A stretch of DNA of 64,000 bases, taken from assembly GCA_019313915.1 (NCBI GenBank), contig JAFDAJ010000003.1, positions 13,369 through 77,368 of the forward strand, given 5' to 3'. The notes under the pieces are model-generated. The model searched no databases. It was not told the DNA's origin and saw nothing but the letters and a program-made list of their open reading frames with translations. This DNA comes from Deltaproteobacteria bacterium. GTDB lineage: Bacteria; Myxococcota_A; Polyangia; Polyangiales; Houyiibacteriaceae. A program made the translations under genes and the position numbers. Of this stretch, positions 16,142 through 61,828 are shown piece after piece (position 1 is the first letter of the stretch; the number at the start of each line of letters is the position of its first letter).

Positions 16142-18172
16142 TCACGGACAGCGGGTTTCGAGATCGCGCGCGATGGCCACGACCCAGGGATCGCGAGCGC
16201 TCTCGTCGTGCTCCAGCAGTCGCGCAATGTGAGCCTTGGCGGCGACGCGTGCGGACTCGTCGCCGGTTCGCAACGCGAGCTCGATCGCGACCAACGAAGT
16301 GTCGCGAGTCTCCTCGGCGTACGCCGCCCAGTCGAGCGCTTCGCGGGCCTCGGGCTCGTCGCATGCCGCCATCGCAGCCATCGCGCGGTAGAGTTCGATC
16401 GAAGTGAAGCCCGGATAGATCTCTGCCGCCTCGGATAACAACCGATACGCTCGCCGGGCCGCCTCGCGTTCGTCATCGGTCCTGCACATGCGAACGCCGG
16501 CGCGCGCGCCGTCTCGAACGAGTGGGCGAAGCAATCGAAGGCCTTGGATCCAGCCTTGAATCGCCTTGGAGTTCTGGTGATGGCCGACTCGACGTGCTTC
16601 GAGGTCGATGTCCTCGTCCGAAACGCCCGGGTCGAGCAGGCGGCCGATTCGGTAACCGGGCCCTATGACTCGGAGCGGCTGCAATGAGGGTGCAATCCCC
16701 TGGTGCAGGAACAGCGACTGGCGGTCTTGGACCTGGCCGAGCCGCCATTGCGGAGAGCGCCACAGGAACTCGACGGCAGCACTTTGACCGGCTCGGGTGT
16801 GATCGACCACGACAGTGTCGACCTCGTAGGTCTGAAGGATCTCGTTCAGGGCCATCGGGTCGCTGAAGCTGTTCGTCACCTTGCGAATGAACTCGGGCCC
16901 GTAGAACGGCACACGGCCGTCGACGAGGAAGCGGCCGCCGGGGACCGCAAACATCAGGGGCCAACTGTCTTGAATCGGCGCGAGGATCCGAGGTTGCTCT
17001 ACGTTCTCGTTGATGACATCGGCAGCGGCGAAGGCGTGCCCGAGCCTTGGCTCGCTGAACCCGAACGGCACGAACGGCTCGAGGCGGGGGGACACCAGCA
17101 TCGCCCAGACAAAGGAGAGGCCAGCAACCACGGTCACGGCACGACGCGAACCTCGAATCCACTCGAGTTGCGCCAAACCGGCCGCAATGAACGGCGCGGT
17201 GAACAGTAGCTGATGCGCAACGAAGCGTATCGAGCGAAACGCCATGATGCTGACCACGACGCAGAACACGCCATACGCGAGACCAAAGCGGCCGGAGCGG
17301 GTGACCGGGCGCATGGTGGCCAAGACGAGGAGAATCGCCACCACGGGTCCGATCAGCAGGTAGAGTGGGTGCGAGGGCGACCAAGGCCCCCACTCGGTGA
17401 CGACGTCGCGGTACTCGGGGCGGAGCACATGGGCCACTGCGTCGGTGACGATGTCGATGCCGAAAGGGGTGCAGGCCGTCGCGAGCATTTGCAGGGCAAG
17501 CAGAGCCACCATGGAGGTAAATGCGGCCGTGCGAATCGAGAACGCCAGAAACAACACGGTGACGAGCAGGCCCAGCAAATGTGATCCGTGCATGTTGACC
17601 CACACGACGTGCATGAGGCCGAGCCCAAAGACGACCCACCGCTTGGCGCGGGGCGAGGCACGCTCCGAGTACAAGACACTGATCCCCAGCAACAAGACAG
17701 CAGGAAGCACCAGACCGACGATCTGCGGACGCACCGTGAACCGAATCCGCGCCAGCGGCGCGAAGAAGATCAAGACCGCGGCCGCGACGGGCGCTGCCAG
17801 CGCTGCGCCCTGTGCCAGCCGGTGTGCGAGAACGACGAGGACGTAGCCAAGCGCCGCGAGCAACAGGCACTTGATTAGGATGAGCGCGATCGGGCCAAAG
17901 TGATCGTAGATGAGCCACGTGACGATGTCGTAGCCCCACTCGTAGTTGCTCCACGGCTGGGGTGTCGGCTTCCAGAAGGAGAACAGGTCGACGGCCGGGA
18001 CGCGGCCAAGCTCCGCAATCTGGCGCCCCTGGGCGAGATGCCCGTAGGCGTCGACGTTGTAGAGCGGAAACGCGCCAACGAGGAAAAAGGCGGCCGCACA
18101 GCCCCACGCACTCCAAGCCAGAACCGTCCGCGACACCACGCTAGTGTTGGTCAGACCCGGGCGCGGGGTCAA
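16142..18172 (-). CDS. polytopic integral membrane protein with a C-terminal TPR-like domain
   Basis: 676 aa. More than 10 hydrophobic helices in the first ~400 aa, a soluble middle region, and a helical-repeat C-terminus. Last gene of a tightly packed minus-strand block. Confidence 0.7.
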   Translation of the reverse strand: MTPRPGLTNTSVVSRTVLAWSAWGCAAAFFLVGAFPLYNVDAYGHLAQGRQIAELGRVPAVDLFSFWKPTPQPWSNYEWGYDIVTWLIYDHFGPIALILIKCLLLAALGYVLVVLAHRLAQGAALAAPVAAAVLIFFAPLARIRFTVRPQIVGLVLPAVLLLGISVLYSERASPRAKRWVVFGLGLMHVVWVNMHGSHLLGLLVTVLFLAFSIRTAAFTSMVALLALQMLATACTPFGIDIVTDAVAHVLRPEYRDVVTEWGPWSPSHPLYLLIGPVVAILLVLATMRPVTRSGRFGLAYGVFCVVVSIMAFRSIRFVAHQLLFTAPFIAAGLAQLEWIRGSRRAVTVVAGLSFVWAMLVSPRLEPFVPFGFSEPRLGHAFAAADVINENVEQPRILAPIQDSWPLMFAVPGGRFLVDGRVPFYGPEFIRKVTNSFSDPMALNEILQTYEVDTVVVDHTRAGQSAAVEFLWRSPQWRLGQVQDRQSLFLHQGIAPSLQPLRVIGPGYRIGRLLDPGVSDEDIDLEARRVGHHQNSKAIQGWIQGLRLLRPLVRDGARAGVRMCRTDDEREAARRAYRLLSEAAEIYPGFTSIELYRAMAAMAACDEPEAREALDWAAYAEETRDTSLVAIELALRTGDESARVAAKAHIARLLEHDESARDPWVVAIARDLETRCP

Positions 18173-18175
18173 ACT

Positions 18176-19006
18176 TCACTCAGGTGTGCGAAAAATGATC
18201 ATCCCGACGTCCGGGCCGAGCAGCTCGAGCGGAAACACGCCGTAGACCTGGAGCTCCCCCTGAAGACGCACTTTCGCGGTGTAGCCGGTGGGCGAGGCGG
18301 CAAGCGCCTTGGCGCGGGCGATGGGGTCTCGAACCAGGGCATCGATCTCCGGGGGCGTGTCCCAGTGGAAGAGGCGCTTTCCCTTGTAGGCGTACACCCA
18401 GACCGGGGCGCCTTCCTTCTGTTCGACCCGAAACTGGCGACTCAGGCGCTGAGCCAGGCGCGACAACGGGATGCCCGCAAGAACGGCTCCAACCACCCGG
18501 TCATCCCGAACGGACGGCGCGGCGAACAGGATCGACCAAGAGGACGGTGCGTTGGGATCCTTCGCATAGAACTCCCCGAGCCCGGTGGTGGTGGTCCCTC
18601 CGAGGGCTTCCCGGACTACGTCGAAGCGCGTTTTGAAATCCTGCCCCTTCATCCGATCCGGCTCCCGATCCCGGGCAATGACCAGCCCATCGACCCCGAC
18701 AGCTGCCAAGAACGACATCGGAGACGCAACGAATTCGTCAATACCTTTCCTAGGTTGCTGGAGAATTCTCAAAGCGGATCGCACTTGTGATTCCCGCGCG
18801 GCCGGGTCGGTGACCGCGAAGCCCGGAGCGAGCTTCTGCGCAGCCTTCACGACGCCCGCCTGATGCTGCGCGAGGTCCTGCTCAACCAGCGCCTGAACCC
18901 GCGGACGGTCGACATCCTGGATTTGTCGCTCGGTGCGCTCCACGGCAGCGGTGTTTTCGCAAGCCGCGAGCGCCGTGATGCTCAGTAGAACGATCCCCCA
19001 GCGCAT
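18176..19006 (-). CDS. lipoprotein, possibly Cache/PDC-like ligand-binding fold
   Basis: MRWGIVLLSITALAAC has a lipobox. Its stop is 3 nt from the start of the downstream membrane-protein gene. The fold suggestion is only an impression. Confidence 0.6.
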   Translation of the reverse strand: MRWGIVLLSITALAACENTAAVERTERQIQDVDRPRVQALVEQDLAQHQAGVVKAAQKLAPGFAVTDPAARESQVRSALRILQQPRKGIDEFVASPMSFLAAVGVDGLVIARDREPDRMKGQDFKTRFDVVREALGGTTTTGLGEFYAKDPNAPSSWSILFAAPSVRDDRVVGAVLAGIPLSRLAQRLSRQFRVEQKEGAPVWVYAYKGKRLFHWDTPPEIDALVRDPIARAKALAASPTGYTAKVRLQGELQVYGVFPLELLGPDVGMIIFRTPE

Positions 19007-19024: not shown

Positions 19025-20440
19025 TCACCCCGTAAAGCGACTACGTCGCCACGGGGCTAGGCGCCAGCGTCGGTGCCCGAAGCGCCACACACCACTTAGC
19101 AACAGCAACGCCAGTACCCATCCGACCTGCCCCCGCCCGTGCCCTGGCCCGCGGACGGAGCACCCGCTACTCCCGCTCGACGTTTGCGCCTGCTGGTCGA
19201 ACTGCCCAGTCGGATTCCGTCGCTTGTTCACGGCCTCATAGCGCTCCTGCAGCGCCGCAGCGCGCTCCTCCGGCGTCACCGAAGGATGCCCGTCCGGTAG
19301 ATTCGCCCCGATGTCATCGAATGCGACCAGCTTCACCGTCGGCTTGTCCGGATGCCGGCCCTCCGACGGGCTCTGCCAGCGCATGAAGATTCCCCCGTCC
19401 GGATGGCCGGAGATGTCGAGCCAGTTCGGCACGCCGGGGTCCCGGTGTGCCAGCACGTATCGAATGATGCCGTCGTCGTCGGGCGTCGATTGGAACCAGT
19501 TGAGCGAGGTCTGGCGGGTTTGATAGTCGATTGACTCGACCCAGAGGTTCCCGAGCTGAATCCCTCCGTGAATGACCGAGGGCTCCGGCGTCTCGATGAT
19601 CAGCGCCTCGTCTTCATCGAGCGAGTACCGCCCTGCACTACTCACCGCGCTTGGCACTCCGGCCCCCGGGATACCGAACGCACCTGGATCCGGTTCGTTG
19701 ACGTCGTTGAGCGGCCAACCGTCGCGGGATGCCTGCATCCTGGCCGGAATGGTAGAGAGGCGAAGCGCGAGCCCCGCCATGTCCGACACAAACTCGTCGG
19801 GGGTGAGGTGCGGCACCGGCCCGCTCATTGGGCCTGCGATGACTTCGACCTGCACGCTGGCTTCGGTCTCGTTGTTCCAATCATAGAACCCGTTACGTAG
19901 GATGAAGCGCTGCGCGCCCGGCTTGAGCTCCATCCAATTGCCCTCCTGCGGCGTCGCGCTGAGGATAATCTCGTAGCTCCCGTCGGCCTCGACGATCAGG
20001 TCTTCCGAAGTCATGAAGGCCTCACCACCAAACGGGTTGTCAAACACTTGCATGCTGACGTAAGGCACCGTCCCCCGCTTGCCATAAATCCGGTACGTGT
20101 ACTCCGCGCTGATTGGCGCCACGTTGATGTACGTGAAGTCGGGATTGTCGAAGCCCACCTTGCACGCGACGCTTGGACAACGCGAGACATGCGGATTCGC
20201 TTCGTTGTGATCGTCGGTCGCCGGCGCGTTCTGCATCTCAATCAGACGAATGATGTGCCGGAACCCCTCCGCCCGATCGGTGCCGTCCTCCGAGGTCCGG
20301 TTGAGCACGAGCTCGCGCGAAGTCTGAAGGGCGTCGAGAAAGCCCTGGAACGCAGCGTCGCTGTCCTGGGCGCGGGCGATGGGGGAAGAGAGGAGGCACG
20401 CCAACGCGGCCACGGCCAGGAAACAAGAAAAGCGATTCAT
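19025..20440 (-). CDS. secreted protein (possibly DUF1214-like) with a MYXO-CTERM-like C-terminal sorting tail
   Basis: Signal peptide MNRFSCFLAVAALACLLSSPIARA. The C-terminus is ..SSGSSGCSVRG..VGWVLALLLLSGVWRFGHRRWR: a Cys, a hydrophobic helix, then a basic cluster. The start overlaps the upstream stop by 4 nt. Confidence 0.7.
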   Translation of the reverse strand: MNRFSCFLAVAALACLLSSPIARAQDSDAAFQGFLDALQTSRELVLNRTSEDGTDRAEGFRHIIRLIEMQNAPATDDHNEANPHVSRCPSVACKVGFDNPDFTYINVAPISAEYTYRIYGKRGTVPYVSMQVFDNPFGGEAFMTSEDLIVEADGSYEIILSATPQEGNWMELKPGAQRFILRNGFYDWNNETEASVQVEVIAGPMSGPVPHLTPDEFVSDMAGLALRLSTIPARMQASRDGWPLNDVNEPDPGAFGIPGAGVPSAVSSAGRYSLDEDEALIIETPEPSVIHGGIQLGNLWVESIDYQTRQTSLNWFQSTPDDDGIIRYVLAHRDPGVPNWLDISGHPDGGIFMRWQSPSEGRHPDKPTVKLVAFDDIGANLPDGHPSVTPEERAAALQERYEAVNKRRNPTGQFDQQAQTSSGSSGCSVRGPGHGRGQVGWVLALLLLSGVWRFGHRRWRLAPWRRSRFTG

Positions 20441-22293
20441 GAAGACCTCCTGGAGGGAGTTCTAGCGGGAGGCCCGCCGAAACGCGAATCGCCCAACCTA
20501 ACAGCCGAACCTTCCCCCGTGCGAATCGGGGAGCCGTCTCCCATTTTCGCCCAGGACCGCTCCTCTTCGAGAAACTGAAGCGGGTCCATCTCCGGTTTCA
20601 CTTTCTCGTAGATGGTCGGAAACGCGCCGTCCGCCGCGTACCTCTCCCGCATCTCGCGCCAAAGGGCATGGTCGAACATCTCCGTGAACTCCGCTTCGGT
20701 GCTGAAGACGTCGCAGTACGTGTGAAGAAACCCGCCGAGCGACCGCGCCTTCTGCTCGAGCGCGCGAACCCTGGTCACAGCGGGGAATCGCGCATCGCCT
20801 TCTCTCACACGCTGAGGAAATCCGTAGATCCCGATGTCGAGGAAGGCCGTGGTTTCGGCCTTGCCCGAGTAGCCTTTGCCGAGATTGCCGGGGAGCCTCA
20901 CGAGCCCACCGTGGTCGATGACCTTGCATGGATACGCGAGCAGCGGATAGATCTCGAAAGCGTCGTGCACGTGCCTGACCATCTCGGCAAAGTGCTCCGC
21001 CGGGAAAGCATACTCCTGCCAGACTTGCTGACGAATCGTATTCTCTCGCTCCGCCTCCGGCCGCGTGCCTTTGAGGAAGGTCGTATTGGGCGGCAGCATC
21101 CACCCCATCGTGTACCGAAACCAAGGTTCGTTCGCTGTCGGAAGGATCTGCGCCAGGCACATGCACATGCTGCGGTCGTGGCGCATCAGATAGTGGTACA
21201 TGGGCACCAGCTCTTCGTGGTGCCGGCCCTCCCCGAGCTCGAGCATCCCTTCGACATGCTTGTAAAAGAGAGGCTTGTAGTAGCGGCCGACCGCGTTAAC
21301 CGGAAGCTTCCCGGCTCGCACCTCATCCAAGGTCGCTAGGTGCCCCTCCATGATGACCGCACGGTCCTTGCCGAAGATGAGGGTCTCGACGAAGTGGGGC
21401 GGCTCCTCTTCGGTGACCAGGCGGCGATACTCTTCGGCATAGGCGTCGAGCGAGTAGAACGGACGATACACCAGCCGAACGTGCGAGGGAGCGGGGATTA
21501 CGCGCACCTCGAGCGCCACGAGGAGCCCAAGCGTCCCATGGCTCCATGGGAGCGCCCTAAAGAGGTCCGCGTGCTCGTTATCCGCAGTAGCCCGCACGAG
21601 CTCGCCCTCGGCCGTCACGATCTCGTACGCCGTCACCGTATCGTGCACGAGCCCGCACACGTGGGAGTGGGTCGTCATGCCGAGCGCCATCACGAGGCCC
21701 CCGAGGGTTGCGTCCTTCATCTCGATGGTAGCCTCGAGCTGGAGTCCCATCTGATCGAGGTGCCACGCGACGTCTCCCACGGTGGCGAACGGCTCGAGTC
21801 TCACGACGCCCCGGCTTTCATCTACCTCGAGGATCGCGGTGAGATCGTGCATACGAATGGTTTGGGAGTGCGACTTGTCGGCGACGCGAGTGTTGAGTGA
21901 AGCGGCGCCCTTGCGGTCGGTTCGAAGCGGCTTCTGCGCCCAGCTCTCACCGCGCTTTCGTGCCACAGCGTAGCGCTTCACATCAGACATCACGCGGGTG
22001 ACGCGCCGGTCATGGTCGTCCGGCGCGCTCGGCTTCGTGACGAGTGCCCTTGCTTTATCCACCGCGGTAGCCAGCGTGCCCAATGGAAGGGCGACACCGA
22101 TGATAACCAGCTCGCGGTGCTCGTCGGCCCAGCGTTTTGCCGCTTCGATTGGTCTTTTTAGGTTCACTAGAGCTCTCCTTAGTGATCGTGCTGCTACCTG
22201 ATGGCCAACCCACAGGCCAGTAGCATCCCACACGCGGGCCGCCAGCGGGGCCGAAGCCCAGTGGCGACGGAGTCGCTCTACGTGGGTGGACAA
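20437..22293 (-). CDS. FAD-dependent oxidoreductase homologous to eukaryotic DHCR24/DWF1 (delta24-sterol reductase-like)
   Basis: N-terminal TM helix followed by blocks I recognise from DHCR24: ILEVDESRGVVRLEPFATVGDV, DATLGGLVMALGMTTHSHVCGL, DLFRALPWSHGTLGLLVALEVRVIPA, YYKPLFYKHVE, FRYTMGWMLPP, FLDIGIYGFP, AFPTIYEKV. Confidence 0.8.
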   Translation of the reverse strand: MSTHVERLRRHWASAPLAARVWDATGLWVGHQVAARSLRRALVNLKRPIEAAKRWADEHRELVIIGVALPLGTLATAVDKARALVTKPSAPDDHDRRVTRVMSDVKRYAVARKRGESWAQKPLRTDRKGAASLNTRVADKSHSQTIRMHDLTAILEVDESRGVVRLEPFATVGDVAWHLDQMGLQLEATIEMKDATLGGLVMALGMTTHSHVCGLVHDTVTAYEIVTAEGELVRATADNEHADLFRALPWSHGTLGLLVALEVRVIPAPSHVRLVYRPFYSLDAYAEEYRRLVTEEEPPHFVETLIFGKDRAVIMEGHLATLDEVRAGKLPVNAVGRYYKPLFYKHVEGMLELGEGRHHEELVPMYHYLMRHDRSMCMCLAQILPTANEPWFRYTMGWMLPPNTTFLKGTRPEAERENTIRQQVWQEYAFPAEHFAEMVRHVHDAFEIYPLLAYPCKVIDHGGLVRLPGNLGKGYSGKAETTAFLDIGIYGFPQRVREGDARFPAVTRVRALEQKARSLGGFLHTYCDVFSTEAEFTEMFDHALWREMRERYAADGAFPTIYEKVKPEMDPLQFLEEERSWAKMGDGSPIRTGEGSAVRLGDSRFGGPPARTPSRRSS

Positions 22294-22329
22294 CCCTCTG
22301 CCCTGGCCTTACCCGTGTCCATAGGAGGC

Positions 22330-22914
22330 ATGACGATGTCCGAGCACGTGCGCGAAATCCGCCCCGCCGCTTCAACGCAACCAACGATCACCGCGCTCGA
22401 CCTCCGCATGATGTCGCGAGATGAGGTGGTGGCTCTCTATCATCGGCTCGAAGCACCGGCCTTCGAAGAGATGCACGGCGAGTTTGCGGCGTCATTGCTC
22501 GACCAGGGGACCGCCCGTGGCTACTTACTCAGCGCGTTTGCGGTGCACGCGAGGGGTCGCTGGCTTTGCAAAGCGTTCGAGCCCACCGGACCGAAGCAGG
22601 GTCACGGCTACAACAGCTTCATGACCCCGCGCGGAGCGCGACGCTCGGCGAGGATGCGAACTCACCTCGGACCTTCCAAGTTGCCCAACGACACGAACGA
22701 CGCGTTCCATCTCGAGTACGCGGATTTCAACGACTTCCAACGTGGCGGCCCCGGAGGGGCACTCTTGCACACGATGTTCGACGAGGTCCGCAAGGTGGGC
22801 CCGGGCCTCTACCTCGGCATTGGTCGCGTGGGTTTCACCAAGAAGGCACGCACGGACCTCCACCCCTTCATCCTAGAAGGCCCAGTTGCCCCGTTCATGA
22901 GCGCAAAGCTCTAA
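22330..22914 (+). CDS. hypothetical protein, tentatively GXWXG/DUF4334-like
   Basis: ATG at 22330 preceded by AGGAGG (22323-22328). The track ORF start at 22201 lies antisense to the neighbouring gene. The C-terminal FDEVRKVGPGLYLGIGRVGF..HPFILEGP is reminiscent of DUF4334. Confidence 0.55.
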   Translation: MTMSEHVREIRPAASTQPTITALDLRMMSRDEVVALYHRLEAPAFEEMHGEFAASLLDQGTARGYLLSAFAVHARGRWLCKAFEPTGPKQGHGYNSFMTPRGARRSARMRTHLGPSKLPNDTNDAFHLEYADFNDFQRGGPGGALLHTMFDEVRKVGPGLYLGIGRVGFTKKARTDLHPFILEGPVAPFMSAKL

Positions 22915-24850: not shown

Positions 24851-26362
24851 TCAGTGGCCCTGCTGGCGGGCCAGCACGACGGGCACCGCATCCGCCACTT
24901 CGGACGCGATTAGACCGCGGTCACCGACCGAAGCTTCGACGCCGGCAAGGGCATGCAAGAGTGCGCCAGCAATCGCCGCATCGATGGGCGCAAGGGTCAT
25001 CCCAAGTGCGCCAACCACCCCGCTCAGGACGTCGCCCGTCCCTGCAACACCAAGCGCCGGGGTTCCCTCTGCGCACACCCGAAGGTCGTCCGCTCCCGCA
25101 ACGATGCTGCGAGCGCCCTTCAAAATGACGACTTGCCCCGACTCGTTCGCTAGCGCTTCGGCGACCGCGTAGCGGTTGGCTTGCACGTCGGCAGTCGATT
25201 GGCCCAGCAGACGCCCCGCTTCACCCGGATGTGGTGTGAGGATTCGCGGCGCGGCGGCCGCTTTCAAGGACGAGAGACCGTCCTCCGCGACATGGGTAAG
25301 ACCGTCAGCGTCGATGACGGTGGGAACTGGCGCATGCAGCGCGAAGGCGCGCGCTCACGTACGTCCGAGGTCGTCCAGTCCCATCCCCGGTCCCAATACG
25401 ACTGCGCGCTTCCCCTCGCACAGAGACTCGACGGCGGCTTGGTCCGCTTGGTCGGGAAGCGCGATCGTCATCAACTCGATCACCTTCTCTTCGAGCGCAG
25501 CCCGCGCATCGGAGCGAGCACCGATCGTGACGAGCCCCGCGCCAGCCCGAAACGCGGCCCGGCCGGCAAGGACCGCCGCGCCAGTCTTTCCCGGCGCGCC
25601 GCCAATGACGAGCAAGTGTCCGTTGGTCCCCTTGTGTGCATCGCCAGCACGCGGCGCGATGAGCGCACCAAGGTCGTCTCTCGTCCACATGCTCGCCGCC
25701 GGAGAGCTTTCGATGGGGATGCCGATGTCGGCCACCCTCACTTCACCTGCATACTCCACGCCGGGATACTGATGAAGGCCGCGCTTGTGGCCTGCGAAAG
25801 TGACCGTCAACGCGGCGTGTGGCGCGACGCCGAAGATCGCGCCGGTGTCTGCGTCGAGCCCGCTGGGCAGATCCAATGCCACTAGAGGAGCCGCCGCACC
25901 GTCCATCGCAGCAATGACATCCGCGTAGCCACCCGTGATCGGCCGGTCGAGCCCCGTCCCAAAGAGGCCGTCGACGACGAGCGTTGCATTCGCCAGATGC
26001 TTACCGATCGACGCGGCGTCGTCCGGGGAGATCTCCGCGGTCTCGATACCGAGCTCGCCAAGAAGCGCCCAGTTGGTTTGCGCGTCGCCGCCCAAACGGG
26101 ACACGTCCCCAACCAGAACCGCCACCGGCCGGTGTCCGAGCAATGTGAGGCGCCTCGCAATCACCCACGCGTCGCCGCCGTTTTGGCCGGGCCCACCAAT
26201 GAGGACGACGCGGCCGAGTCGCTCGCCAAACAGCTGGCAAATCGCATGGGTTGCACCGCGCCCGGCGTTCTCCATCAACACCAGGCCGAGCACGCCGAAC
26301 TCATCCATGGCCGCGCGATCGACATCGCGCGACTCCTCGCGTGTAAAAAGCCGCTGCACCAT
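24851..26362 (-). pseudogene. nnr: bifunctional NAD(P)H-hydrate repair enzyme Nnr (YjeF_N epimerase + YjeF_C dehydratase), interrupted by an in-frame TGA
   Basis: Track ORFs 25355..26362 and 24851..25267 are in the same frame (start-to-start 1095 nt). The first ends ..VVLGPGMGLDDLGRT*. The 29 codons after the TGA read ARAFALHAPVPTVIDADGLTHVAEDGLSS and run into ..ILTPHPGEAGRLLG..GTGDVLSG, a continuous YjeF_C domain. Confidence 0.7.
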
Positions 26363-28698: not shown

Positions 28699-30714
28699 CT
28701 ACGGCGTATACCAGATCGGCGATGTCCACGCGCGCTCTTGAATCGTCAGCTCCACCGGCGGCAGGCAGCAGCGCGCCTCGTGCTCCGTCAGCAGGTCGGT
28801 GTTTTCACATGCGACGTCGGCACAGGCTGTGCGGTTCAGGCCGACCACGGGATCGCAACAATCACTGTCCAAGTTCGTAGTGGGGTTCTCGCAGTCGTAT
28901 CCGTTCTCCAAACACTGCCGTACGCTCCACCTGCAAGTCGGGTTCTCCAGGACCCGTAGGTAGTAGTAAGCGCGCTGAGAGGGGTCAAAGTCCTCGTCGA
29001 CCCAGCGGTGGCACAACGAAGCGTGCCCGGTGCCCTGTGACTCACAGGTCGCGAGGTCTACCCCGGCACCGTTGTCGGCGTCGGGCGTCACGTCAGTGAC
29101 ACGGGTTTGCACCTCTCCGCCGTCATCCAACCATCCTTTGATGATCTGCACGCGCTGCAGCGGCGTGCCCGGACGCCCCTCCGTCCCCGGGTCCTGTCGC
29201 GCGAATGCTACGAAGATGGGAACTGCGGAGGCTTCGGGCTGCGAGGGAAGCTCTCTGCCCATCGGCACCCCACTCTCATAGCCCTCGCTCTCGAGTGACG
29301 CGCGGTCGCAGATGTCCTCAGGATAGCTCCAGCCTGCGAAAAACCGAGGAACGATCCGGGGCCCGCTAGTTCCAAACGTCTCTTTGCGCACCACGGCGTC
29401 AAAGATCGCTTCGCGAGAGTTTTCCTCGGCCCACACCCCGGCCAAGCCTCCTGATCCAAAGTAGGGATCGTCGACGAGGCCCTGTTCCAACGGATCTGCA
29501 GACACTTGGACCCGCGACACCGCATCGCCGTTGCCCGGATGGTCGTATTCTGCCACCGCGCCGGGGTTCGCCATGTGTGCGTCCGTCCCGGCGATGACGG
29601 CGTACCGGAATGGGTTCACACCGAAGTCTCGTTCGAGCTCCATGCCGCGCCCGAAGGCGTCTCGCGCAAAGCCTCCTGCAACGGGAGCGCCGATGACGTC
29701 GAGCGACAGCGCGGTGAAGTTCGGGTACGGAAACTCCTCGAACCCACAAAACTCGTCTGGCGCGCCCAAGCTCCTGGCGCACTCCGAGGAACCTTTCTGC
29801 TGATAGATCTCGATCGCAGGCTCCATCACGGCGCGCTCACGCAAATACTCGGCATCGAGCGGAAGGTCCTCTTTTCCGCTCCGTTGGAAGTACGTTCCGG
29901 CCGAAAGGTTCGTGTTGTGCGCGAGGGTGATGACATCACATCCAGTGCCCGCATCGATGCAATCGTCGCGAAGCATCTGCCACATGGCCTCTGGCCTCTT
30001 GGCGTTGAATGGGTCCGGCGGAACGCTAGGCACGGTAGCGCTACGAAAAACGACGTTCCGATGCATGTTGTTGCCACCCGGGCTGGCCGTCCACTCGAAC
30101 GCGACGAAGCTGGTGAAGTTACACGCCGGACTCTGATCGTTCGCCTCGTTGGCTGCCGCCTGTACGTCAAGCCACACTTCCTTGCCAGCCTCGATGCAGT
30201 CTTCGCCGGCGTCGCCGCACAAGGCCGGATGATCCCCACTGAAGGTAAAGGGCAGAACGAGCGTCAGGAACGCGCCTTCTGGGTCCGTGCGAAACTGCTG
30301 GCACTCCGGGTGCGCGTACGCGACCGAATCTGGATCTCGACACAAGGCGACTGACCCAAAGTGTGCGGAGTGGTCTGTTGCCGCGGCGAAATCGAGTGGG
30401 CGCTCTAGTTGCAACGTGCGAAGGGCGTTTCCGTCTTCGTCATACGGCGTAATGTCGATCCGATTGCCCCGAGCGAACTCGTAGGCCGTACGAGGCCCGA
30501 GCCGCGTTCCCGAAAGATTCGCGTCGTAGGAAAGAGACGTGTGGACATGCAGATCACCGAACAACGGCTGGCGGAGAGCGTCGAAGTCGTCGCAGTGCCC
30601 AACGCCAGGTGGTCGAACCCCGGCATCACCGTTAGAGCAAGCTGCGAATATCGTCGAGAAGAGTAAGGCGCAAGACGCCGTGCGTGTCGTTCCTGCCTTC
30701 ATCAGTTTGGTCAC
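28699..30714 (-). CDS. DUF3604-family metal-dependent (PHP-like) protein, lipoprotein signal
   Basis: CALLFSTIFAAC has a lipobox, followed by FGDLHVHTSLSYDA, typical of DUF3604. GTG at 30714 overlaps the prkA stop (GTGA). An alternative ATG at 30702 exists. Confidence 0.8.
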   Translation of the reverse strand: MTKLMKAGTTRTASCALLFSTIFAACSNGDAGVRPPGVGHCDDFDALRQPLFGDLHVHTSLSYDANLSGTRLGPRTAYEFARGNRIDITPYDEDGNALRTLQLERPLDFAAATDHSAHFGSVALCRDPDSVAYAHPECQQFRTDPEGAFLTLVLPFTFSGDHPALCGDAGEDCIEAGKEVWLDVQAAANEANDQSPACNFTSFVAFEWTASPGGNNMHRNVVFRSATVPSVPPDPFNAKRPEAMWQMLRDDCIDAGTGCDVITLAHNTNLSAGTYFQRSGKEDLPLDAEYLRERAVMEPAIEIYQQKGSSECARSLGAPDEFCGFEEFPYPNFTALSLDVIGAPVAGGFARDAFGRGMELERDFGVNPFRYAVIAGTDAHMANPGAVAEYDHPGNGDAVSRVQVSADPLEQGLVDDPYFGSGGLAGVWAEENSREAIFDAVVRKETFGTSGPRIVPRFFAGWSYPEDICDRASLESEGYESGVPMGRELPSQPEASAVPIFVAFARQDPGTEGRPGTPLQRVQIIKGWLDDGGEVQTRVTDVTPDADNGAGVDLATCESQGTGHASLCHRWVDEDFDPSQRAYYYLRVLENPTCRWSVRQCLENGYDCENPTTNLDSDCCDPVVGLNRTACADVACENTDLLTEHEARCCLPPVELTIQERAWTSPIWYTP

Positions 30715-50371: not shown

Positions 50372-50839
50372 TCAGCGGCCGAGGGCACCGATGATCGCAT
50401 CACCGCGGGCGCCCTGCGGACGCAATCTAGCCCGTCGGCCGACCTCGGACACGATCTCCAGCTCCACCCACAGAACCGTCCGGCTCGACATCCAGGGAAA
50501 CTTGCGGCCCCACTCGACGAAGAGCACTGCTCCCTCTTCGATCAGCTCATCGACGCCCAGCTCCTCGAGCTCTGCCTCGCCGGCAAGCCTGTAGAAGTCC
50601 GCATGGGCGACCCGAAGGCGTCCTTCGTACTGGTGCACCAGCGCGAACGTCGGACTGGTCACGGCCCTCTCCTCCGTCACCCCGAGCCCATGAACGGCGC
50701 CACGTATGAAGGTCGTCTTACCGGCACCTAGCCCGCCCTCGAGCCCAATCACGTCGCCACCCTCGAGTACGGCCGCAAGGGACCGCGCGAGGGCGAGCGT
50801 ATCGGCTTCGCTCTGCAGCTCGATCTCCAACATGCACAA
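50372..50839 (-). CDS. tsaE: tRNA threonylcarbamoyladenosine biosynthesis ATPase TsaE
   Basis: LEGGLGAGKTTFIRG (P-loop), SPTFALVHQY and HADFYRL are the typical YjeE/TsaE blocks. Confidence 0.85.
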   Translation of the reverse strand: MCMLEIELQSEADTLALARSLAAVLEGGDVIGLEGGLGAGKTTFIRGAVHGLGVTEERAVTSPTFALVHQYEGRLRVAHADFYRLAGEAELEELGVDELIEEGAVLFVEWGRKFPWMSSRTVLWVELEIVSEVGRRARLRPQGARGDAIIGALGR

Positions 50840-50890: not shown

Positions 50891-53800
50891 TCAGACCTTG
50901 ATCTGGATACCGAGCTGCTCGCGGAGGCGGAAGTAGCTCTCCGAGATACTGTAGATCACGATCTCCCTGACCTTGTCGCGCGGAGCGAGGTCGGCCGTGG
51001 ACTCGGATGCGATTTGCTGCGTCATGCGAACAGCCGTATCGACGTCGTCGCACAGAAGCAGACCGGCCCGAAGTGCGGTGACCTCTGTCGCCTGCATCCA
51101 TCGCTTGATGTCCGCCCGACCACCTGCATCGACGAACTTGCGAACGACCTGCTTGAGCACGTCGAGGCGCGCCTGGTCCATGTGCTTTGCCAACTGCTTT
51201 GCAGTGGACTCCACGCTGGCGTCGCCGCCTCCCATGCCGACGACGCGCATGGCTGCCAGCAGGAGCGTCCTAAGCTCGGTGTGCGAGCTGTACATCGTGC
51301 GGATGAAGTGCTCGCCGCGATAGTACGTCAGGTGACGTCCGCACACGAACGCGAGGTCGACCGGACGGTAGCCCGACAGCAGCGTGTAGCCGGTGATGAT
51401 CGCCGGTGGGTTACTGCGTGACTCGTCTCGGAGCGCACCCGACAGCTCCTTCTGAATGAAGAGGCGTACCGGGATGGACACGTTGAGCACGTCCTGTGCC
51501 AGCTTGAACTGCCGCGCGAGCGCGAGGCTCGGGTTGGCGAGGTCTTCGGGCTTACGCTTGTGCAGGTTGAGCTTCCTGTCCGTCAGCGCCTGCGATGCTC
51601 GAACCGCCGGGGCAATCACCTCCATGATCTTGGAGATGTAGATGTCCTGGTCAGAGTGCATCAGGTCCTTGACCCAGTTCTCGTTGCTGAGCCGTGTCTT
51701 CGGCTGGATCTCGCGATCCTGCCTGTACTGCTGGTAGAATTTCTGCTGCTCCTCGTCCGCCTTCTGGAAATAGGTCAGCGTCCGCGCGATACACCACGCC
51801 TTGTCGTAGGCGCGCGCGTCGAAGTACAGCTTGTACAGAGCCCGATACGAGTCGAGCCGGTTCGGGTCGGCTGCGAGAAGCCACTGGTGCTCCGCGATGG
51901 CCTCCTCCGTCTTGTCCGGCATCGTCGCGTAGAGCTCTGCAAGAATCTCGTGCTCGACGGCGTTATCCGGCTTGAGCCCAGCGGCCATCTGGAACGACTC
52001 CGCCGCAGCGTCGAAGTTCCGCTGACGGTCGCGATAGATGATCCCGAGCGTGTGCCAGAGGTTGTGCTCGAGGTCCGTGTTGCCCTGGTTGATGATGCGG
52101 TGAAGCATCTTGCGGTACGCCCGCTCGAGCGCCTTCCAATCTTTGCGCTCGTTGAGCAGCTTGTTGACCGCCTCGAAAGGCTTTAGTTGCGTGCTGTCGA
52201 GGTCGAGGGCTTCATTGAACCGCTCGAGGGCCGCATCTTCGTCCTCGAGCTTGTCGCGAAGGACGACGCCGATGGTGTAGGTGTACTTGGCCTTGGCTGC
52301 GTCGCGCTCCTCGAGCCCGCAGACGCGCTCGATGATGTCGATGGCCTCGGACCAGCGCTCCGCAGCTTGGTAGGCCACCAAGAGCTTGTGAAGCACCACG
52401 TGGTTGTCGGGTTCGAGGTCGAGCGACTCGGTGAACGCCTCGGCGGCGGCATCGGAATCCTTGAGTTTCTCGTGCCAGAGATCACCGAGCTCGACCAGAA
52501 GCGCTGCCCGAACCGACGGCTCGTCGGCCACATCGAGGATCCGCTTCTTGTATTGAACCACCGAGTCCCAGTCGCCCTCTGCCGTCTGCAGCGCAACCAT
52601 CGCTTCGAGAGCGGGCACGAAGTGCGTGTCCTCCTCGAGCGACTTGTCGAACATGTTGCGCGCCTTCTTGTCCTCACCCTGCTCCCGCTTGACGACACCA
52701 AGCCGATAGAAGACCTCCGTGATCTCGTCGCGACCGAGCGCATCACGATGTTGGACTAGCAGCAACTGGTGGTACTTGAACGCGTCATCCCATTGCTCCG
52801 CTCGGAAGTAGCTTCCAGCCAAACCCTTGAGCGTGTGCGAATCGTCGTTGTCGAGCTCGTAGGCCCGCTCGTAAGCGCTGACCGCTGCAGCGGCGTGACC
52901 GAGCTTGGTCGCCGTCTCACCCAGCATCGACGCGAGTCGATGTTGCTCGTCGCTGTCGCGTTTGTCCGACCGCTGAACCAAAAGCTGAAGCAGCGGGAAC
53001 GCATCCGCATGCCGGTCATGTGCAACGTACGAATCGACAAGCGGCAACAAGGCCTCCTCGTTGTCCGGATCGGCAGCAGACGCCGCCTCGAAGGCCTGAA
53101 CGGAGCCCGCCTCGTCGTCGAGCCTCTCGGCGCGAATGCGGCCGAGCTCGACGAGACGGGCGCCCCGAATCCGGTCGTTCTCGGTGTGTTCGATCTCGAG
53201 ACCGAGTATGCGAGCAGCCGCCACCCAGTCGCCCGAATCGACGTGTATGCTCCGCATGGCCTCGAGCGACGGCAGATGCGCCGCGTCCAAGTCGATCGCC
53301 GCCTGGAACTGCTCCAACGCCGAGACGCGATCCCCGAGCTCTCGGTCGAGGATACGGCCCATGCGGTGCTTGAGCGCCACCTGATCGGCCGGGTCGTCGA
53401 GGACCACGGCGAGTTGACCCATCATGTCCAGCGCCGCGGAGTAGTCGCCCTTGCGCTCGTACAACTTCGTCAGCGCCTGCAGGCTAAACACATCTTGCTC
53501 GTTGAGATTGAGCGCGTTTAGGTAGCTGTCGATCGCCTGCTCGACGTCGTCTTTGTGCGCGGCATACAGCTGGCCGAGCTCCCGAAAAATGCGAGCCCGT
53601 TCCTCGTTGTCCGAAGTCGCGTTCGCGTGGCGGTCGTAGGTGCGCACCAGGTCGTCCCAGCGCTGCATCGTCCGGTAGAGTTGCTCGAGCTGACACAACG
53701 CTTCGTCGTGCAGCGGGTCGATATCCAAGACCTGCTCCAGACGCTCCGCCGCATTCTCCGGCTTGTGGAACTCCTGCTCCCACATCTGGGCGAGACGCGT

Positions 53801-56800
53801 CAGAATCTCGATTCGCTCGCGCTCGGTCGCGACGATTTCATACTCCCGCTCGAGGATGCCAATCAAATCCTGATAGCGGCCATCCTGAGCGTACAAACGC
53901 TCCAAACCTCGAAGTGCGCTGAGGTCCGACGGCGCTAGCGCGGCCGCCTTCTCGTAATTCTCGACGGCGGCCTTCGGGTCGTTGAAGCGCTCCTCGTAGG
54001 CCTCCGCGACCTGCAGCAGCGCTGACACGACGCTGTCCGTATCCTCGACGGCCTCTGCTTTGCGTTCGAGGATATTCAGCAGCTTGTTGGAGCGGCCGTC
54101 CTCGCGGTAGATGCGTTCCAGGGCTTGCAAGGCACCGACGTGCTTTGCCTGCAGGTGCAATGCCCGGCGGTAATAGTCCTCCGCCTCTTGCCGCATCGCG
54201 AAGCGGTCGTCGGCCAGGTCGCCCATGCGGACGTACGTATCGGCTTTGACCTCGTCATCACTGCTGAGCTCTACGAGCTTTGCGAGCGCCTGGGCGAGCT
54301 TGTCCCACTGCTGGGTGGTTTCGTACAAATCGCCGAGCTGCCACCAAGCCTTGGCGTTGCCTGGGTCGAGCGCTCGAATTTGCTCGTAGTAGGGAATTGC
54401 GTACTCGGGATGTCCGAGATCCTGCCCGTACCACTTCGCGCAGCAGAGGCAGATGGCGATCTGGGTTTCCGGCTCGTGCCCCTCTTGCAACACCTGATTG
54501 GCGGACGTGAGAAGCTCGTTCCACTTGTCGTGCGCCGCGGTCACGCGTTCGAGGTCCACAGCCGTGTTCTTGTTCCCGAAGTCCTCGGTCCAAGCGATGT
54601 AGAGCGTGTGGTACGCCTGCTCGCCGTCTCCCAGCTGCTCCTCGTACACCCTGGCAGCCGCGCGCAAGAGCTCGATGCGCTCGTCACGATCGTCAGTGCT
54701 TTCGATGCGGGTGACGTACAGGTCGATCAGCTCGTCCCATCGCTCCGCCTCTTTGTGCAGTGCCTGCAACTCGGAGAATGCGTACTCGTGCATCGGGTCG
54801 ACATCGAGGATGCGGCCGAATGCGGCCGCGGCGCCGTCCTTGTTACCGACCTCGCTCTCCCACAGCTCGGTAACCGAGACGAGCTGGCGAATCTTCTCCT
54901 GCGGATCCACGAGCGCTTGCGCACGCTGCTCCATGACATCGATCGCGTCCTCCCATGCGTTCTCATCACGATGGATGAGCTCGAGCGAGTCCAGCGCTTC
55001 GAAGAAGGCAGGATCGACGGTCAGAACGTTACGATATGCCTCGACCGCCTCGCCCGGCTGCTGAAGCTCGCTCCCGTAGATGTGCCCTAGCTGCATGTAG
55101 ACCGTGACGAGATCGGCGTCCTCGAGGGTCGCCGCGCCGACGTCGATGATCCGATGCAAGGTATCGGCGCGCTCTCGCGATTGGCCGCCCGCCCGGTGAA
55201 TCTCCGCGATGCTGAACAGGGCGTACGTGTTGCCCGGGTCGATATCGAGCACCCGCTCCCAGTTCTCGATCGCGTTGCGCTCGCGCTCCAGCTTCTCGTA
55301 CCAAACCCTTGCGAGGTCCGAGTACACCTGAATGCAGAAGGTATCGTCGTCGGCAATCGCAGCCTCGCGTTCGAGGACGTCGACGAGGTCGCGCCAGTTG
55401 CCCTGCGACGCGTAGATGTCGCCGAGCGCGTTGAGCGCCTCCGGGTCCTCGCCGCGAAGGTCGAGGACTCGCTGCCACAGGCCGATGGCCTTTTCCGGAT
55501 CCCGGAGCCGGTTCGACGACAGCTTGGCCATCCGCGCGAACACATCGGCCTGTTGCGAGTCACCAAGCGCAATGCTCAGCTCTTTCTCGAAGCTCGCGAA
55601 GAGCTCGGGCCAGCGCTCGAGGTTGGCGTAGATGCCCTGCAGCGCCTGAATCGTCTCGGCGTGCTCGGAGTCGTGATCGTCGAGCAGCTTGGTGAAGACC
55701 TCGACGGCGTCCTCGGTACAACCAAGCCGCTGCTCGAGCACCACGCCGAGGCGGTAGTGGAGGTCGATCAGCTCCGATCCGTTGTTCGAACCTTCGATTC
55801 GCTTTCGAAGCACCTGTGCCAGCGCCCGGTGCGCCCCGTGCTCGGTGTAGATACGATCGAGCGCTTTGAGGGCGTCTTCATCGTGGTCGTCGACACCCAG
55901 CACGAATCGATACGTTTCCTCGGCGCGCTCCAAGTCGTGGAGCTGCTCCTCGTACACCTTGGCAAGACGGCGGCCGAGCTCCGCTTTGCTGAGCGGGTCC
56001 CCGGTGTGCTGAATGCCGTTTGCGTACGTGGTGGCCAGTTGGGTCCAACCGTCGACGATCGCCGAGAGGCGCTCCGCCTCGCCGAGCGAATGGTCGTGGC
56101 TCGGATCTTCGAGCAAAGCCTTCTGCATCCACTGAAACGCGCGACCATGATCATCGGCCTTGTCTTCGGCAATCTCGGCAAGCCTGTGCATCATGACGAC
56201 GCGCTCAATCGGATCGCTCTGATGCTCGACTTGGACCTCCTGCACGCTCAGCAGCTGCCCCCAGTTGCCCTGCATGCGGTAGAGCGGCTCGAGCACTTCA
56301 CCGATCTCCAGCGGCCGCACGCCGCTCGAAAACAGGTCTTCGAGTGCCGAGACCGCCGGCGAGAACTCGGGCGCAGCCGCGAGAATCTCGCGATACTGCG
56401 CGATGGCGGAATCCATATTGCCAAGCTGATTCTGAAACACCTGTCCGGTCCGGAACTGTAGGTTCAGGACGTCCTCGGGCGTGGTCGCAACCGCAGCTTC
56501 CATTTGAAGCGTCGCCGCCAGGTCGTCCCAGCGCTCGGTCTGTTCGTAGAGGCGGTCGAGCGCCTCGATGGCGCTGACATCCGCAGAGTCCACGTCGACG
56601 ACAAACTGGTAGCGCGAAATCGCCGCGTCGACGTCGTCCAGCTGAACCTCATTGATCACCGCCGAGCGCTTGGATAGATGAACGACGTCTTCCGGCGATT
56701 CTTCACGCATTCTCAGCACTTCGGCATCATAACGCGAAGCCGCTTCATGCCAGCTGCCCGTTTGCTCAGCGAGGCGCTCCAGCGATGAGAGCGTGAGCTC

Positions 56801-60958: not shown

Positions 60959-61828
60959 CTACGGCGATTCGGTTCTCAATTCTGCGAGACGGTCTCGCGC
61001 AGCCTTCACGTAATGCTCGGGCGCATCCGTGCCCGCCATCATCACGTACTTGTCGAGGTAGCGTTTGGCTTCCTCGTCGTTGCCCTGAAGGGCATACGTC
61101 CAACCGAGCGAAAACAACGCGTCGCTCATGCCCGGCACGATGCCAAGCGCAGCCTGAAACTCGGCAATGGCCTCGTCGTACTTGCGCTGCTGCTGGTACA
61201 CGGTGCCCACGAGGTGATGAATGTTCGCCTCCTCTTCAGTCCCGGGCATAGCGACCTTGAGCCCCTCGTTCAGCACCTGCGCGGCCTGATCCGGATAGCG
61301 CAGGTCTGCGTACAGGCGCCCGAGCGCCGAGTAGGACGGCAAGAACCGCGGACCGGTCTTGATCGCATCGGTGTACTGGTGAAGCGCGTTCTGCGGATCT
61401 TCGAGCTCCTCGCTGCAACGACCCAACTTGAAGTGCGCCTTGAACAACGACGGATCGAGCTCGAGCGCCTTGGTGAACGCCGTCTGTGCGCCCTTCCAGT
61501 CTTCGAGCTCTATCAGCACGGTTCCGAGCTTCTCGTGGTAGCCCGCCATGTCGGGGCTCGCGACGATCGCTCGTTCGAGCGCCTCACGCGCAGCCGAGAA
61601 CGACCTCAGCTCGACCTGAACGATGGCGAGGTTGAAGTACGCCTGATGATTGGTGGGATCGATCGCGCCGGCCTTCTCCAGGCTCTGGGCGGCTTCGTTG
61701 AAGCGCTTCATCTGCGCGAGCTCGACCCCGGCATTCATCTCGTTCATCGACTCCACGCGGGCGCGTGAACAATTACCGCCCATGAGGATTAGCCCCACCA
61801 ATACAACCCCGAACATGTGAGCACGCAT
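60959..61828 (-). CDS. TPR-repeat protein with an N-terminal signal/anchor (envelope)
   Basis: MRAHMFGVVLVGLILMGGNCS is a hydrophobic N-terminus with a non-canonical lipobox, followed by ~6 TPR units. Its stop is 15 nt upstream of the giant TPR gene. Confidence 0.75.
   Translation of the reverse strand: MRAHMFGVVLVGLILMGGNCSRARVESMNEMNAGVELAQMKRFNEAAQSLEKAGAIDPTNHQAYFNLAIVQVELRSFSAAREALERAIVASPDMAGYHEKLGTVLIELEDWKGAQTAFTKALELDPSLFKAHFKLGRCSEELEDPQNALHQYTDAIKTGPRFLPSYSALGRLYADLRYPDQAAQVLNEGLKVAMPGTEEEANIHHLVGTVYQQQRKYDEAIAEFQAALGIVPGMSDALFSLGWTYALQGNDEEAKRYLDKYVMMAGTDAPEHYVKAARDRLAELRTESP

Follow-up and report, generated by a model that had tools for sequence, protein, structure and literature searches.

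A DHCR24/DWF1-family reductase of uncultured Myxococcota: clade, gene neighbourhood and candidate substrates

The reductase gene and its relatives

The stretch of DNA studied here, a 64-kb window of contig JAFDAJ010000003.1 (positions 13,369 to 77,368) from the Deltaproteobacteria assembly GCA_019313915.1 (Myxococcota, Polyangiales), carries on its minus strand a gene for a predicted FAD-dependent reductase which, judged from its alignments, is an intact member of the DHCR24/DWF1 family (KEGG K09828, EC 1.3.1.72). The similarity extends along nearly the whole length of the protein, in line with the first-pass annotation of the window. BLASTP aligns residues 17-523 of the protein (numbered in its 576-residue form, see below) with residues 30-510 of human DHCR24, N-terminal hydrophobic segment included (36% identity over 509 amino acids (aa), E = 9e-99, 298 bits), and Arabidopsis DWF1 is matched with 32% identity over 546 aa (E = 3e-80, 251 bits); both reference sequences were verified by exact-sequence look-up (DHC24_HUMAN and DIM_ARATH). 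The C-terminal domain aligns throughout in the two comparisons. Since the human and Arabidopsis enzymes are themselves just 40% identical, the window protein is well within the range of divergence of the family.

The open reading frame (ORF) at 20437-22293 that had been annotated was recovered with exactly these coordinates, from a TTG start at 22293 to a stop codon at 20437-20439, but its length of 618 aa is probably 42 aa too long. The homologues are about 540-590 aa long and all of them open with a methionine aligned to V43 of the 618-aa ORF. Moreover, an AAGGAG sequence precedes the GTG codon at 22167, and the N-terminal extension falls inside the 169-bp divergent spacer (22168-22336) that separates this start from the neighbouring 192-aa gene. 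Taken together, these observations make 576 aa the most likely length, with the gene probably starting at the GTG (Table 1). Promoter and terminator scans around the gene gave matches at chance level.

Table 1 Features of the reductase locus (positions in the window)
Feature	Position	Strand	Remarks
DHCR24/DWF1-family FAD-dependent reductase, 576 aa	20437..22167	-	Probable GTG start at 22167; based on homology, start analysis and AlphaFold model
Shine-Dalgarno sequence AAGGAG	22175..22180	-	7 nt 5' of the GTG at 22167
In-frame 42-codon extension from the TTG at 22293	22168..22293	-	Probably untranslated; contains the reductase ribosome-binding site
Conserved gene of ~192 aa, no Pfam match	22337..22914	+	Divergent from the reductase; edge of the variable slot
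DUF1214-like secreted protein, 471 aa	19025..20440	-	Signal peptide, weak DUF1214 match, 6ANS-like core, MYXO-CTERM-type tail
276-aa lipoprotein, lipobox LAAC	18176..19006	-	Co-directional, downstream; conserved core synteny
676-aa polytopic membrane protein	16142..18172	-	~9 hydrophobic segments and a C-terminal soluble region; last co-directional gene

The residues expected of the family are largely conserved. The window clade and the canonical DHCR24s share 82 alignment columns that are both conserved and identical, and the seven human positions that we take to be sites of desmosterolosis mutations (R94, R103, E191, N294, K306, Y471 and E480) are all identical in the window protein (R85, R94, E182, N291, K303, Y484 and E493). 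Conversely, six otherwise conserved DHCR24 positions are switched in the window clade (human C91R, F336C, W337M, G346A, L470T and Y490W), the replacement of F336/W337 by C/M falling in the human RSIFWE motif. The single N-terminal transmembrane helix of the first-pass annotation corresponds to a hydrophobic segment at residues 19-37 of the 576-aa form (Kyte-Doolittle mean 1.65, a moderate value). It is modelled by AlphaFold as a helix at residues 18-43 and aligns with the N-terminal hydrophobic region of the human protein. Apart from the last 30 aa or so, which form a disordered tail, the model has high confidence (pLDDT 87.9, pTM 0.86), and it shows a two-domain VAO/PCMH fold.

This fold is shared with other flavoenzymes, and the protein might in principle be no more than a look-alike of DHCR24, either a generic FAD oxidase of the VAO/PCMH type or an alkyl-DHAP synthase. 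Indeed, the sole Pfam match is FAD_binding_4 (residues 144-235 of the 618-aa ORF, E = 2.3e-13), a PCMH-type FAD domain in the N-terminal half; the NCBIfam matches (GlcD, lactone oxidase and DprE1) are all partial and far under their cut-offs; and the nearest solved structures in the fold search are cytokinin oxidase, DprE1 and GalLDH. Nevertheless, these structures are only 13-15% identical to the model and cover just the shared fold, whereas the DHCR24 alignment continues through the C-terminal domain. A sequence search of the PDB gave generic VAO-type matches of at most 27 bits, alkyl-DHAP synthase reaching 13.8 bits (E = 0.12) against the 298 bits of human DHCR24. The comparison with alkyl-DHAP synthase and VAO-type enzymes had been named in the first-pass annotation as one that could overturn the assignment, and it came out in favor of DHCR24. 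Both candidates are thus ruled out by sequence comparison, the probability left to them being negligible, and the earlier view that the protein is more than a generic FAD_binding_4 oxidase is upheld. Neither the sequence search of the PDB nor the fold search with the reductase found a solved DHCR24-type structure.

A search of a large database with the reductase produced 316 relatives, the best of which (about 85 sequences, 71-91% identical) come from Myxococcota, Polyangiales or 'Deltaproteobacteria' metagenome-assembled genomes (MAGs) and are often labelled 'delta24-sterol reductase' by JGI. These relatives indicate a host of the Myxococcota type, as does the MYXO-CTERM annotation of proteins close to the product of the adjacent gene (see below). 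An exhaustive search among representative sequences gave 196 clusters (50% identity level) at E <= 1e-30. A profile made from neighbouring bacterial-looking representatives retrieved sequences of Enhygromyxa salina, Nannocystis and Paraliomyxa, together with DHCR24-type proteins from invertebrates that are 53-58% identical to the group reference P0123. The phylogeny was reconstructed by neighbour-joining with 200 bootstraps; most of its unnamed representatives are anonymous metagenome proteins, and no Coxiella, Legionella or methanotroph sequence was located in the tree. The window protein belongs to a core clade of uncultured Myxococcota (bootstrap 100) nested in an all-bacterial clade, called here clade B (bootstrap 99.5), which also includes a Nannocystales MAG, Spirochaeta isovalerica (56% identical to the window protein), the isolate DTSAM18 and Actinomycetota (Marmoricola). 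The Nannocystaceae enzymes and the invertebrate proteins make up a separate clade (bootstrap 100), and the human and plant branches are also apart. In this tree, clade B is phylogenetically separate from the published canonical C-24 reductases of bacteria, and the window protein is not shown to be an orthologue of the enzymes whose delta24-reductase function is demonstrated or strongly supported. The grouping of the Nannocystaceae sequences (P0373, P0376 and P0354) with the invertebrate ones (P0426, P0434, P0422, P0441 and P0421, from amphioxus, Daphnia, springtail, Ciona and a nematode, 54-56% identical to P0123) is, for its part, consistent with a gene transfer between animals and bacteria, a reading that parallels an earlier proposal for Methylococcus capsulatus. 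A neighbouring clade contains two metagenome proteins of 732-786 aa (P0129 and P0436) that are natural fusions of an FA_hydroxylase domain (ERG3/ERG25 family) with a DHCR24-type protein.

The distribution of the window clade was studied by scanning species-representative genomes with two clade-specific peptide motifs, a procedure that recovered only this clade; the Enhygromyxa, Methylococcus and Coxiella sequences were not recovered by it. Nearly all of the 41 loci found (those discussed below are designated by L numbers) are from uncultured Myxococcota, and the rest are from Spirochaetes, one Aureispira and one Actinomycetota MAG. The comparison of the match lists revealed no contig bearing both a window-clade and a Nannocystaceae-type reductase. 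The MAG accessions of the studied loci found no match in one supplementary file of PMC12004948 on MAGs bearing Osc and Cyp51.

The statement in the first-pass annotation that DHCR24 homologues are rare in bacteria no longer holds. Besides the hundreds of bacterial or metagenomic members found here, homologues have been reported in M. capsulatus, whose DHCR24 was described as branching with Metazoa and choanoflagellates (Desmond & Gribaldo 2009, PMC2817430), in dozens of methanotrophs bearing an oxidosqualene cyclase (OSC) and in Nannocystis (Lee et al. 2023, PMC10202945 Supplementary Data 1), and, as canonical C-24 reductases, in E. salina and other Nannocystaceae (Lee & Welander 2025, PMC12004948). 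Given these publications, a myxobacterial DHCR24 homologue is not new in itself. The window protein is like the Nannocystaceae enzymes in family, architecture, phylum and set of conserved residues, but the latter group with invertebrate DHCR24s instead of clade B; the 'Delta(24)-sterol reductase' of E. salina is 42% identical to the window protein over about 530 aa. The window clade also has motifs of its own (RH[DE]RSMCM and GFLHTY[CV]D in place of RHTRSIFW and GFQMLYAD), and its hosts are uncultured Polyangiales-type MAGs. The N-terminal helix and PCMH FAD domain are shared with human DHCR24 (seladin-1) and plant DWF1/DIM (EC 1.3.1.72), from which the window protein differs by being bacterial, by the six clade switches and the disordered C-terminal tail, and by having no adjacent sterol pathway. 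The methanotroph homologues are likewise bacterial; in several Methylocaldum genomes the reductase gene lies directly against CYP51 and the contig also carries OSC nearby (PMC10202945), whereas the window gene has no CYP51 next to it. We are thus dealing not with a new enzyme type but with a second, separate clade of DHCR24-type proteins in uncultured Myxococcota, Spirochaetes and Actinomycetota.

Gene neighbourhood in the window and in related loci

Upstream of the reductase, the divergent 192-aa gene has a GGAGG sequence 8 nt 5' of its ATG at 22337 and is conserved in L027, L032, L047 and L048 (73-79% DNA identity, blastn), although the region that it occupies could pass for intergenic DNA. 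Downstream, the reductase stop is overlapped by 4 nt by the start of the DUF1214-like gene. The core of the corresponding 471-aa protein is homologous to an uncharacterised PDB entry (6ANS, E = 3e-42), and its C-terminus (...SSGSSGCSVRGPGHGRGQVGWVLALLLLSGVWRFGHRRWRL...) has the MYXO-CTERM-like succession of Gly-Cys-Ser, a hydrophobic stretch and an Arg-rich end. No NCBIfam model matched at E <= 0.05; close homologues of the protein are annotated as MYXO-CTERM domain-containing (JGI, NCBI) or as DUF1214. A literature search on the function of DUF1214/DUF1254 gave nothing useful.

In L047, L048 and L049 a block made up of an ECF sigma factor, ThiF, the DUF1214-like gene, the 276-aa gene, a 664-aa gene (in L048, at the position of the 676-aa gene), Aat, ClpA, ClpS and CysG is shared with the window, and no reductase is found in the 17-kb stretches around it. 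In the window the reductase is slotted between the divergent 192-aa gene and the DUF1214-like gene; L027 carries the two genes of the reductase-DUF1214 pair inverted together, and in L032 the reductase is present without DUF1214. The reductases closest to that of the window (90% identity, L006 and L007) are surrounded by unrelated genes (DUF1571, MFS and SDR). With this presence and absence among relatives and these differing neighbours, the reductase counts as accessory, and its slot is a variable one within a chromosomal block that is conserved in other respects. The reductase-less L047 holds other genes between ThiF and the DUF1214-like gene (L047:1636-7908), namely a CarboxypepD_reg protein, an FMO-like flavin monooxygenase and a PF10118 'Metal_hydrol' protein, which makes the slot a hotspot for accessory, mostly redox, genes.

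These comparisons also bear on the functional partners of the reductase. The first-pass annotation had looked for them among the downstream envelope proteins, in an operon model that makes one functional unit of the reductase and all three downstream genes. The four genes are indeed co-directional and tightly packed, with gaps of 3-18 nt after the overlapping first junction, and export or membrane signals are found in all three downstream products. Yet, the ThiF / DUF1214-like / 276-aa (/ 664-aa) / Aat / ClpA block exists in L047, L048 and L049 without a reductase, which makes the lipoprotein and the membrane protein part of the core synteny and not partners. Furthermore, none of the related reductase loci has the 676-aa gene, and just two of them, L027 and L032, have the 276-aa gene, there on the opposite strand, while the 90% identical reductases of L006 and L007 lie in the other surroundings described above. 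The four-gene envelope operon was therefore rejected as a functional unit: L047-L049 largely refute it for the lipoprotein and the membrane protein, and as a whole we consider it very improbable. What stands of the proposal is the DUF1214-like protein, whose gene alone among those of the window accompanies the reductase elsewhere too. It adjoins the reductase, in both gene orders, in seven independent genomes or contigs (the window, L001/L020, L008/L050, L024, L027, L051 and L052), although the protein of L001/L020 has just 27% identity.

Two other genes accompany the reductase outside the window. An orthologous SDR (~274 aa) and a Sulfotransfer_3 protein (~420 aa) flank it in eight independent genomes (L001/L020, L002, L008/L050, L030, L031, L036, L051 and L052), counting L051, where only the SDR is seen and the contig ends at the position expected for the sulfotransferase, and L052, where the sulfotransferase is partial (43% identity). 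When the two genes closest to the reductase on either side are counted over 36 non-redundant loci, Sulfotransfer_3 comes out as the most frequent family. The reductase, the SDR, the sulfotransferase and the DUF1214-like gene are all found together in L001/L020, L008/L050, L052 and probably L051. In the window, homologues of the SDR and of the sulfotransferase are absent throughout the 64 kb. The clade is usually linked to sulfotransferase, SDR and DUF1214 genes and not to genes of the core sterol pathway. The SDR itself is of the generic classical type, with 7alpha-HSDH and FabG among its top matches and no pointer to a substrate. The only solved relatives of the sulfotransferase are 2ZQ5 (E = 1e-56) and 2Z6V (E = 1e-52), which are presumably the mycobacterial lipid sulfotransferases Stf1 and Stf9. 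The Stf family sulfates non-sterol lipids and includes Stf3, the enzyme that makes sulfomenaquinone, a menaquinone derivative.

In L008/L050 and L051 a rubredoxin, a PF10118 'Metal_hydrol' protein, a StyC-like epoxide isomerase (SOI; 104 bits, under the cut-off of 150) and a 570-aa protein are added to these genes (L050:3370-12430). The cluster of L050, L008, L051 and L052 suggests a pathway in which a lipid is epoxidised or hydroxylated, isomerised, taken through redox steps and sulfated. A Rieske oxygenase near the L008/L050 cluster was considered as SdmA or KshA and rejected, as it is GbcA- or carnitine-monooxygenase-like (31.6 bits with SdmA, whose cut-off is 600); it is uninformative as to whether the lipid is a sterol.

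No description of the recurrent reductase / SDR / sulfotransferase / DUF1214 cluster, and no paper linking the sterols of Myxococcota to sulfotransferases, was found in the searchable literature. Tentatively, and with more doubt than confidence, the reductase and DUF1214-like gene of the window could be what is left of a so far undescribed lipid-tailoring cluster of uncultured Myxococcota, or a minimal version of it. Such a cluster would comprise the DHCR24-type reductase, the SDR, the sulfotransferase and the secreted DUF1214-like protein, with the rubredoxin, PF10118 protein, StyC-like isomerase and 570-aa protein in some genomes, and its product could be a sterol or another isoprenoid lipid, sulfated and modified in its side chain, that the cell handles at its surface. 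In that case, it would be the first bacterial sterol-sulfate-type pathway outside the gut Bacteroides and would give the DUF1214 family its first functional context. It is this recurrent cluster that most deserves to be followed.

Candidate substrates of the reductase

The chemistry of the enzyme, an FAD-mediated saturation of a side-chain C=C bond, can be inferred with good confidence from its family. By homology, the protein would be a membrane-anchored flavoenzyme with one N-terminal helix, a PCMH-type FAD domain and a DHCR24-specific cap domain, in which FAD, reduced by NADPH, would serve to saturate a C=C bond of the last isoprenoid unit of a lipid, most likely the delta24 bond of a sterol side chain. 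In the window lineage it may serve as an accessory lipid-tailoring gene, whose probable partner here is the translationally coupled, secreted and presumably MYXO-CTERM-anchored DUF1214-like protein, and elsewhere the SDR and the sulfotransferase.

We consider a sterol to be the most likely substrate, with slightly better than even confidence. Every characterised member of the DHCR24/DWF1 family acts on sterols, and some of the loci point to triterpenoids. In L035 and L039, whose reductases are 75-79% identical to the window protein, a bona fide CYP51 and then TetR are found directly upstream of the reductase and divergent from it; the best PDB matches of this CYP51 are the enzymes of M. capsulatus (E = 7e-134) and Mycobacterium tuberculosis (E = 9e-112), and nothing else ties the clade directly to a sterol enzyme. 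The compact unit (L035:7354-11737, and the same in L039) has a 199-aa gene, CYP51 and TetR on a common strand, next to the divergent clade-B reductase, and its surroundings are unrelated. The reductase of L001/L020 has around it two 3beta-HSD-type genes, an FA_hydroxylase, a ferredoxin reductase, TetR, SDRs, sulfotransferases, a GMC oxidoreductase and an aldehyde dehydrogenase. The next gene on its upstream side is nearest to HpnA and SdmB, both associated with triterpenoids, although under their cut-offs; for the FA_hydroxylase of L001, no solved relative was found and the one match, OlsE-like, is weak. The FA_hydroxylase-DHCR24 fusions of the neighbouring clade (P0129 and P0436) also speak for a sterol.

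Several observations, however, weigh against a sterol substrate. The E. salina enzyme belongs to a clade other than that of the window protein, and clade B is an experimentally uncharacterised one. The CYP51 adjacency is limited to one lineage, represented by two near-identical MAGs, and CYP51 also occurs in mycobacteria that make no sterols. Clade B extends to Actinomycetota and to S. isovalerica; the latter is an obligate anaerobe and therefore cannot epoxidise squalene. The six motif switches could mean that the substrate pocket is altered. Finally, no sterol, triterpenoid or isoprenoid pathway gene was found by Pfam among the ~47 ORFs of the window, the families looked for being cyclase, squalene epoxidase, P450, ERG4/24, Rieske-type SdmA and geranylgeranyl reductase (GGR)-type Bsr. 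These scans and an equally empty tblastn search agree with the first-pass annotation, which had seen no other sterol-pathway gene in the window. Likewise, no oxidosqualene cyclase was found in the 765 kb formed by the window and 46 related loci (tblastn, E <= 1, with an unverified human lanosterol synthase sequence as query).

A different possibility is that the same chemistry serves a non-sterol lipid of isoprenoid or alkenyl type, for instance the tail of a polyprenyl compound or quinone, or some other terpenoid. The reductase would then carry out one step toward a hydroxylated, sulfated lipid, and the other steps would be left to the SDR, the sulfotransferase and, in some genomes, the rubredoxin, PF10118 and styrene-oxide-isomerase-like genes. 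Its commonest neighbours, the Sulfotransfer_3 protein and the orthologous SDR of the eight genomes, are not sterol enzymes, and this proposal is also in keeping with the solved relatives of the sulfotransferase, with the gene content of the extended cluster, with the presence of the clade in an anaerobic spirochaete and in Actinomycetota, with the motif switches and with the lack of a cyclase in any locus examined. There is, moreover, a precedent for substrate switching between lipid classes in the GGR family, where sterol side-chain and menaquinone reductases can be close relatives (PMC12004948). The action of all characterised DHCR24/DWF1 enzymes on sterols weighs against it, as do the CYP51 of L035/L039 and the HpnA/SdmB-like and FA_hydroxylase neighbours in L001, and we regard a non-sterol substrate as a serious rival, though less likely than a sterol.

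Under the favored sterol substrate, the bacteria need not make the sterol themselves. One sub-case is that sterols scavenged from prey or the environment are saturated and conjugated, perhaps with the help of the surface DUF1214-like protein. This would fit a patchy accessory reductase without a linked cyclase, a partner that is a secreted or surface protein, and the occurrence of the clade in an anaerobe that cannot make sterols de novo as well as in predatory groups (Myxococcota and Aureispira). TetR regulators, which are typical of steroid-responsive operons, are found near the reductase and, in L035, directly adjacent to it. Coxiella and Legionella carry sterol reductases without a cyclase; the DHCR24-family protein CBU1206 of Coxiella burnetii is reportedly a functional delta24 sterol reductase, which offers a precedent for action on acquired sterols, even though Coxiella is an intracellular pathogen and its reductase gene is said to be eukaryote-derived. 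Nevertheless, the CYP51 beside the reductase in L035/L039 rather suggests biosynthesis from 14-methyl sterols, the binding of sterols by DUF1214-like proteins is purely putative and their solved homologue 6ANS is uncharacterised, and many Myxococcota MAGs carry Osc and Cyp51 (PMC12004948). Scavenging seems rather unlikely.

The role of the clade is also made less obvious by the existence of a second type of C-24 sterol reductase. Sandaracinus and Minicystis lack a canonical C-24 reductase and use Bsr, a geranylgeranyl-reductase-type enzyme of Polyangiaceae and Sandaracinaceae (PMC12004948). The reaction proposed for the window protein is that of Bsr, an FAD-dependent saturation of the C-24 double bond of sterols, but Bsr is non-homologous, with a GGR fold and a YxWxFP motif in place of the FAD_binding_4 domain and VAO/PCMH fold of the window protein, so that a sterol producer of the Polyangiales type needs no DHCR24-type enzyme. 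The question matters because sterol synthesis in bacteria, especially Myxococcota, bears on the origin of the eukaryotic sterols and on the reading of sterane biomarkers. If the clade acts on sterols, the bacteria that saturate, and probably conjugate, sterol side chains would be a wider set, and the clade would have to be counted when cholesterol-type lipids are predicted from C-24 reductase homologues in MAGs. If it acts on other isoprenoids, the automatic 'delta24-sterol reductase' (K09828) labels over-predict sterol metabolism in metagenomes.

Other genes of the window

The remainder of the window is overall of housekeeping or regulatory character. It includes genes for ClpA/ClpS, Aat, MscS, a ThiF-rhodanese protein, an ECF sigma factor, Nnr/YjeF, PPK2, PrkA, CarB, RecG, CysG-HemD, pilins and a 3350-aa TPR protein. 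Searches of the window for tRNA genes and for Rfam families gave no match. The 3350-aa ORF (50891-60943, minus strand) consists almost entirely of TPR repeats and lies between a 289-aa TPR gene (60959-61828) and TsaE (50372-50839). A frameshift near 25355 breaks the bifunctional Nnr/YjeF gene (YjeF_N and Carb_kinase domains; 24851-26362, minus strand) into two ORFs, 335 and 138 aa long. In L048 and L049 the gene is undivided (504-505 aa), and the split in the window corresponds to a pseudogene or an assembly error. Finally, a DUF3604 protein is encoded about 6.5 kb from the reductase (28699-30714, minus strand), and homologues that are 31-34% identical occur within a few kb of the reductase in L010, L031 and L044; DUF3604 may thus be a weak recurrent neighbour or a coincidence.

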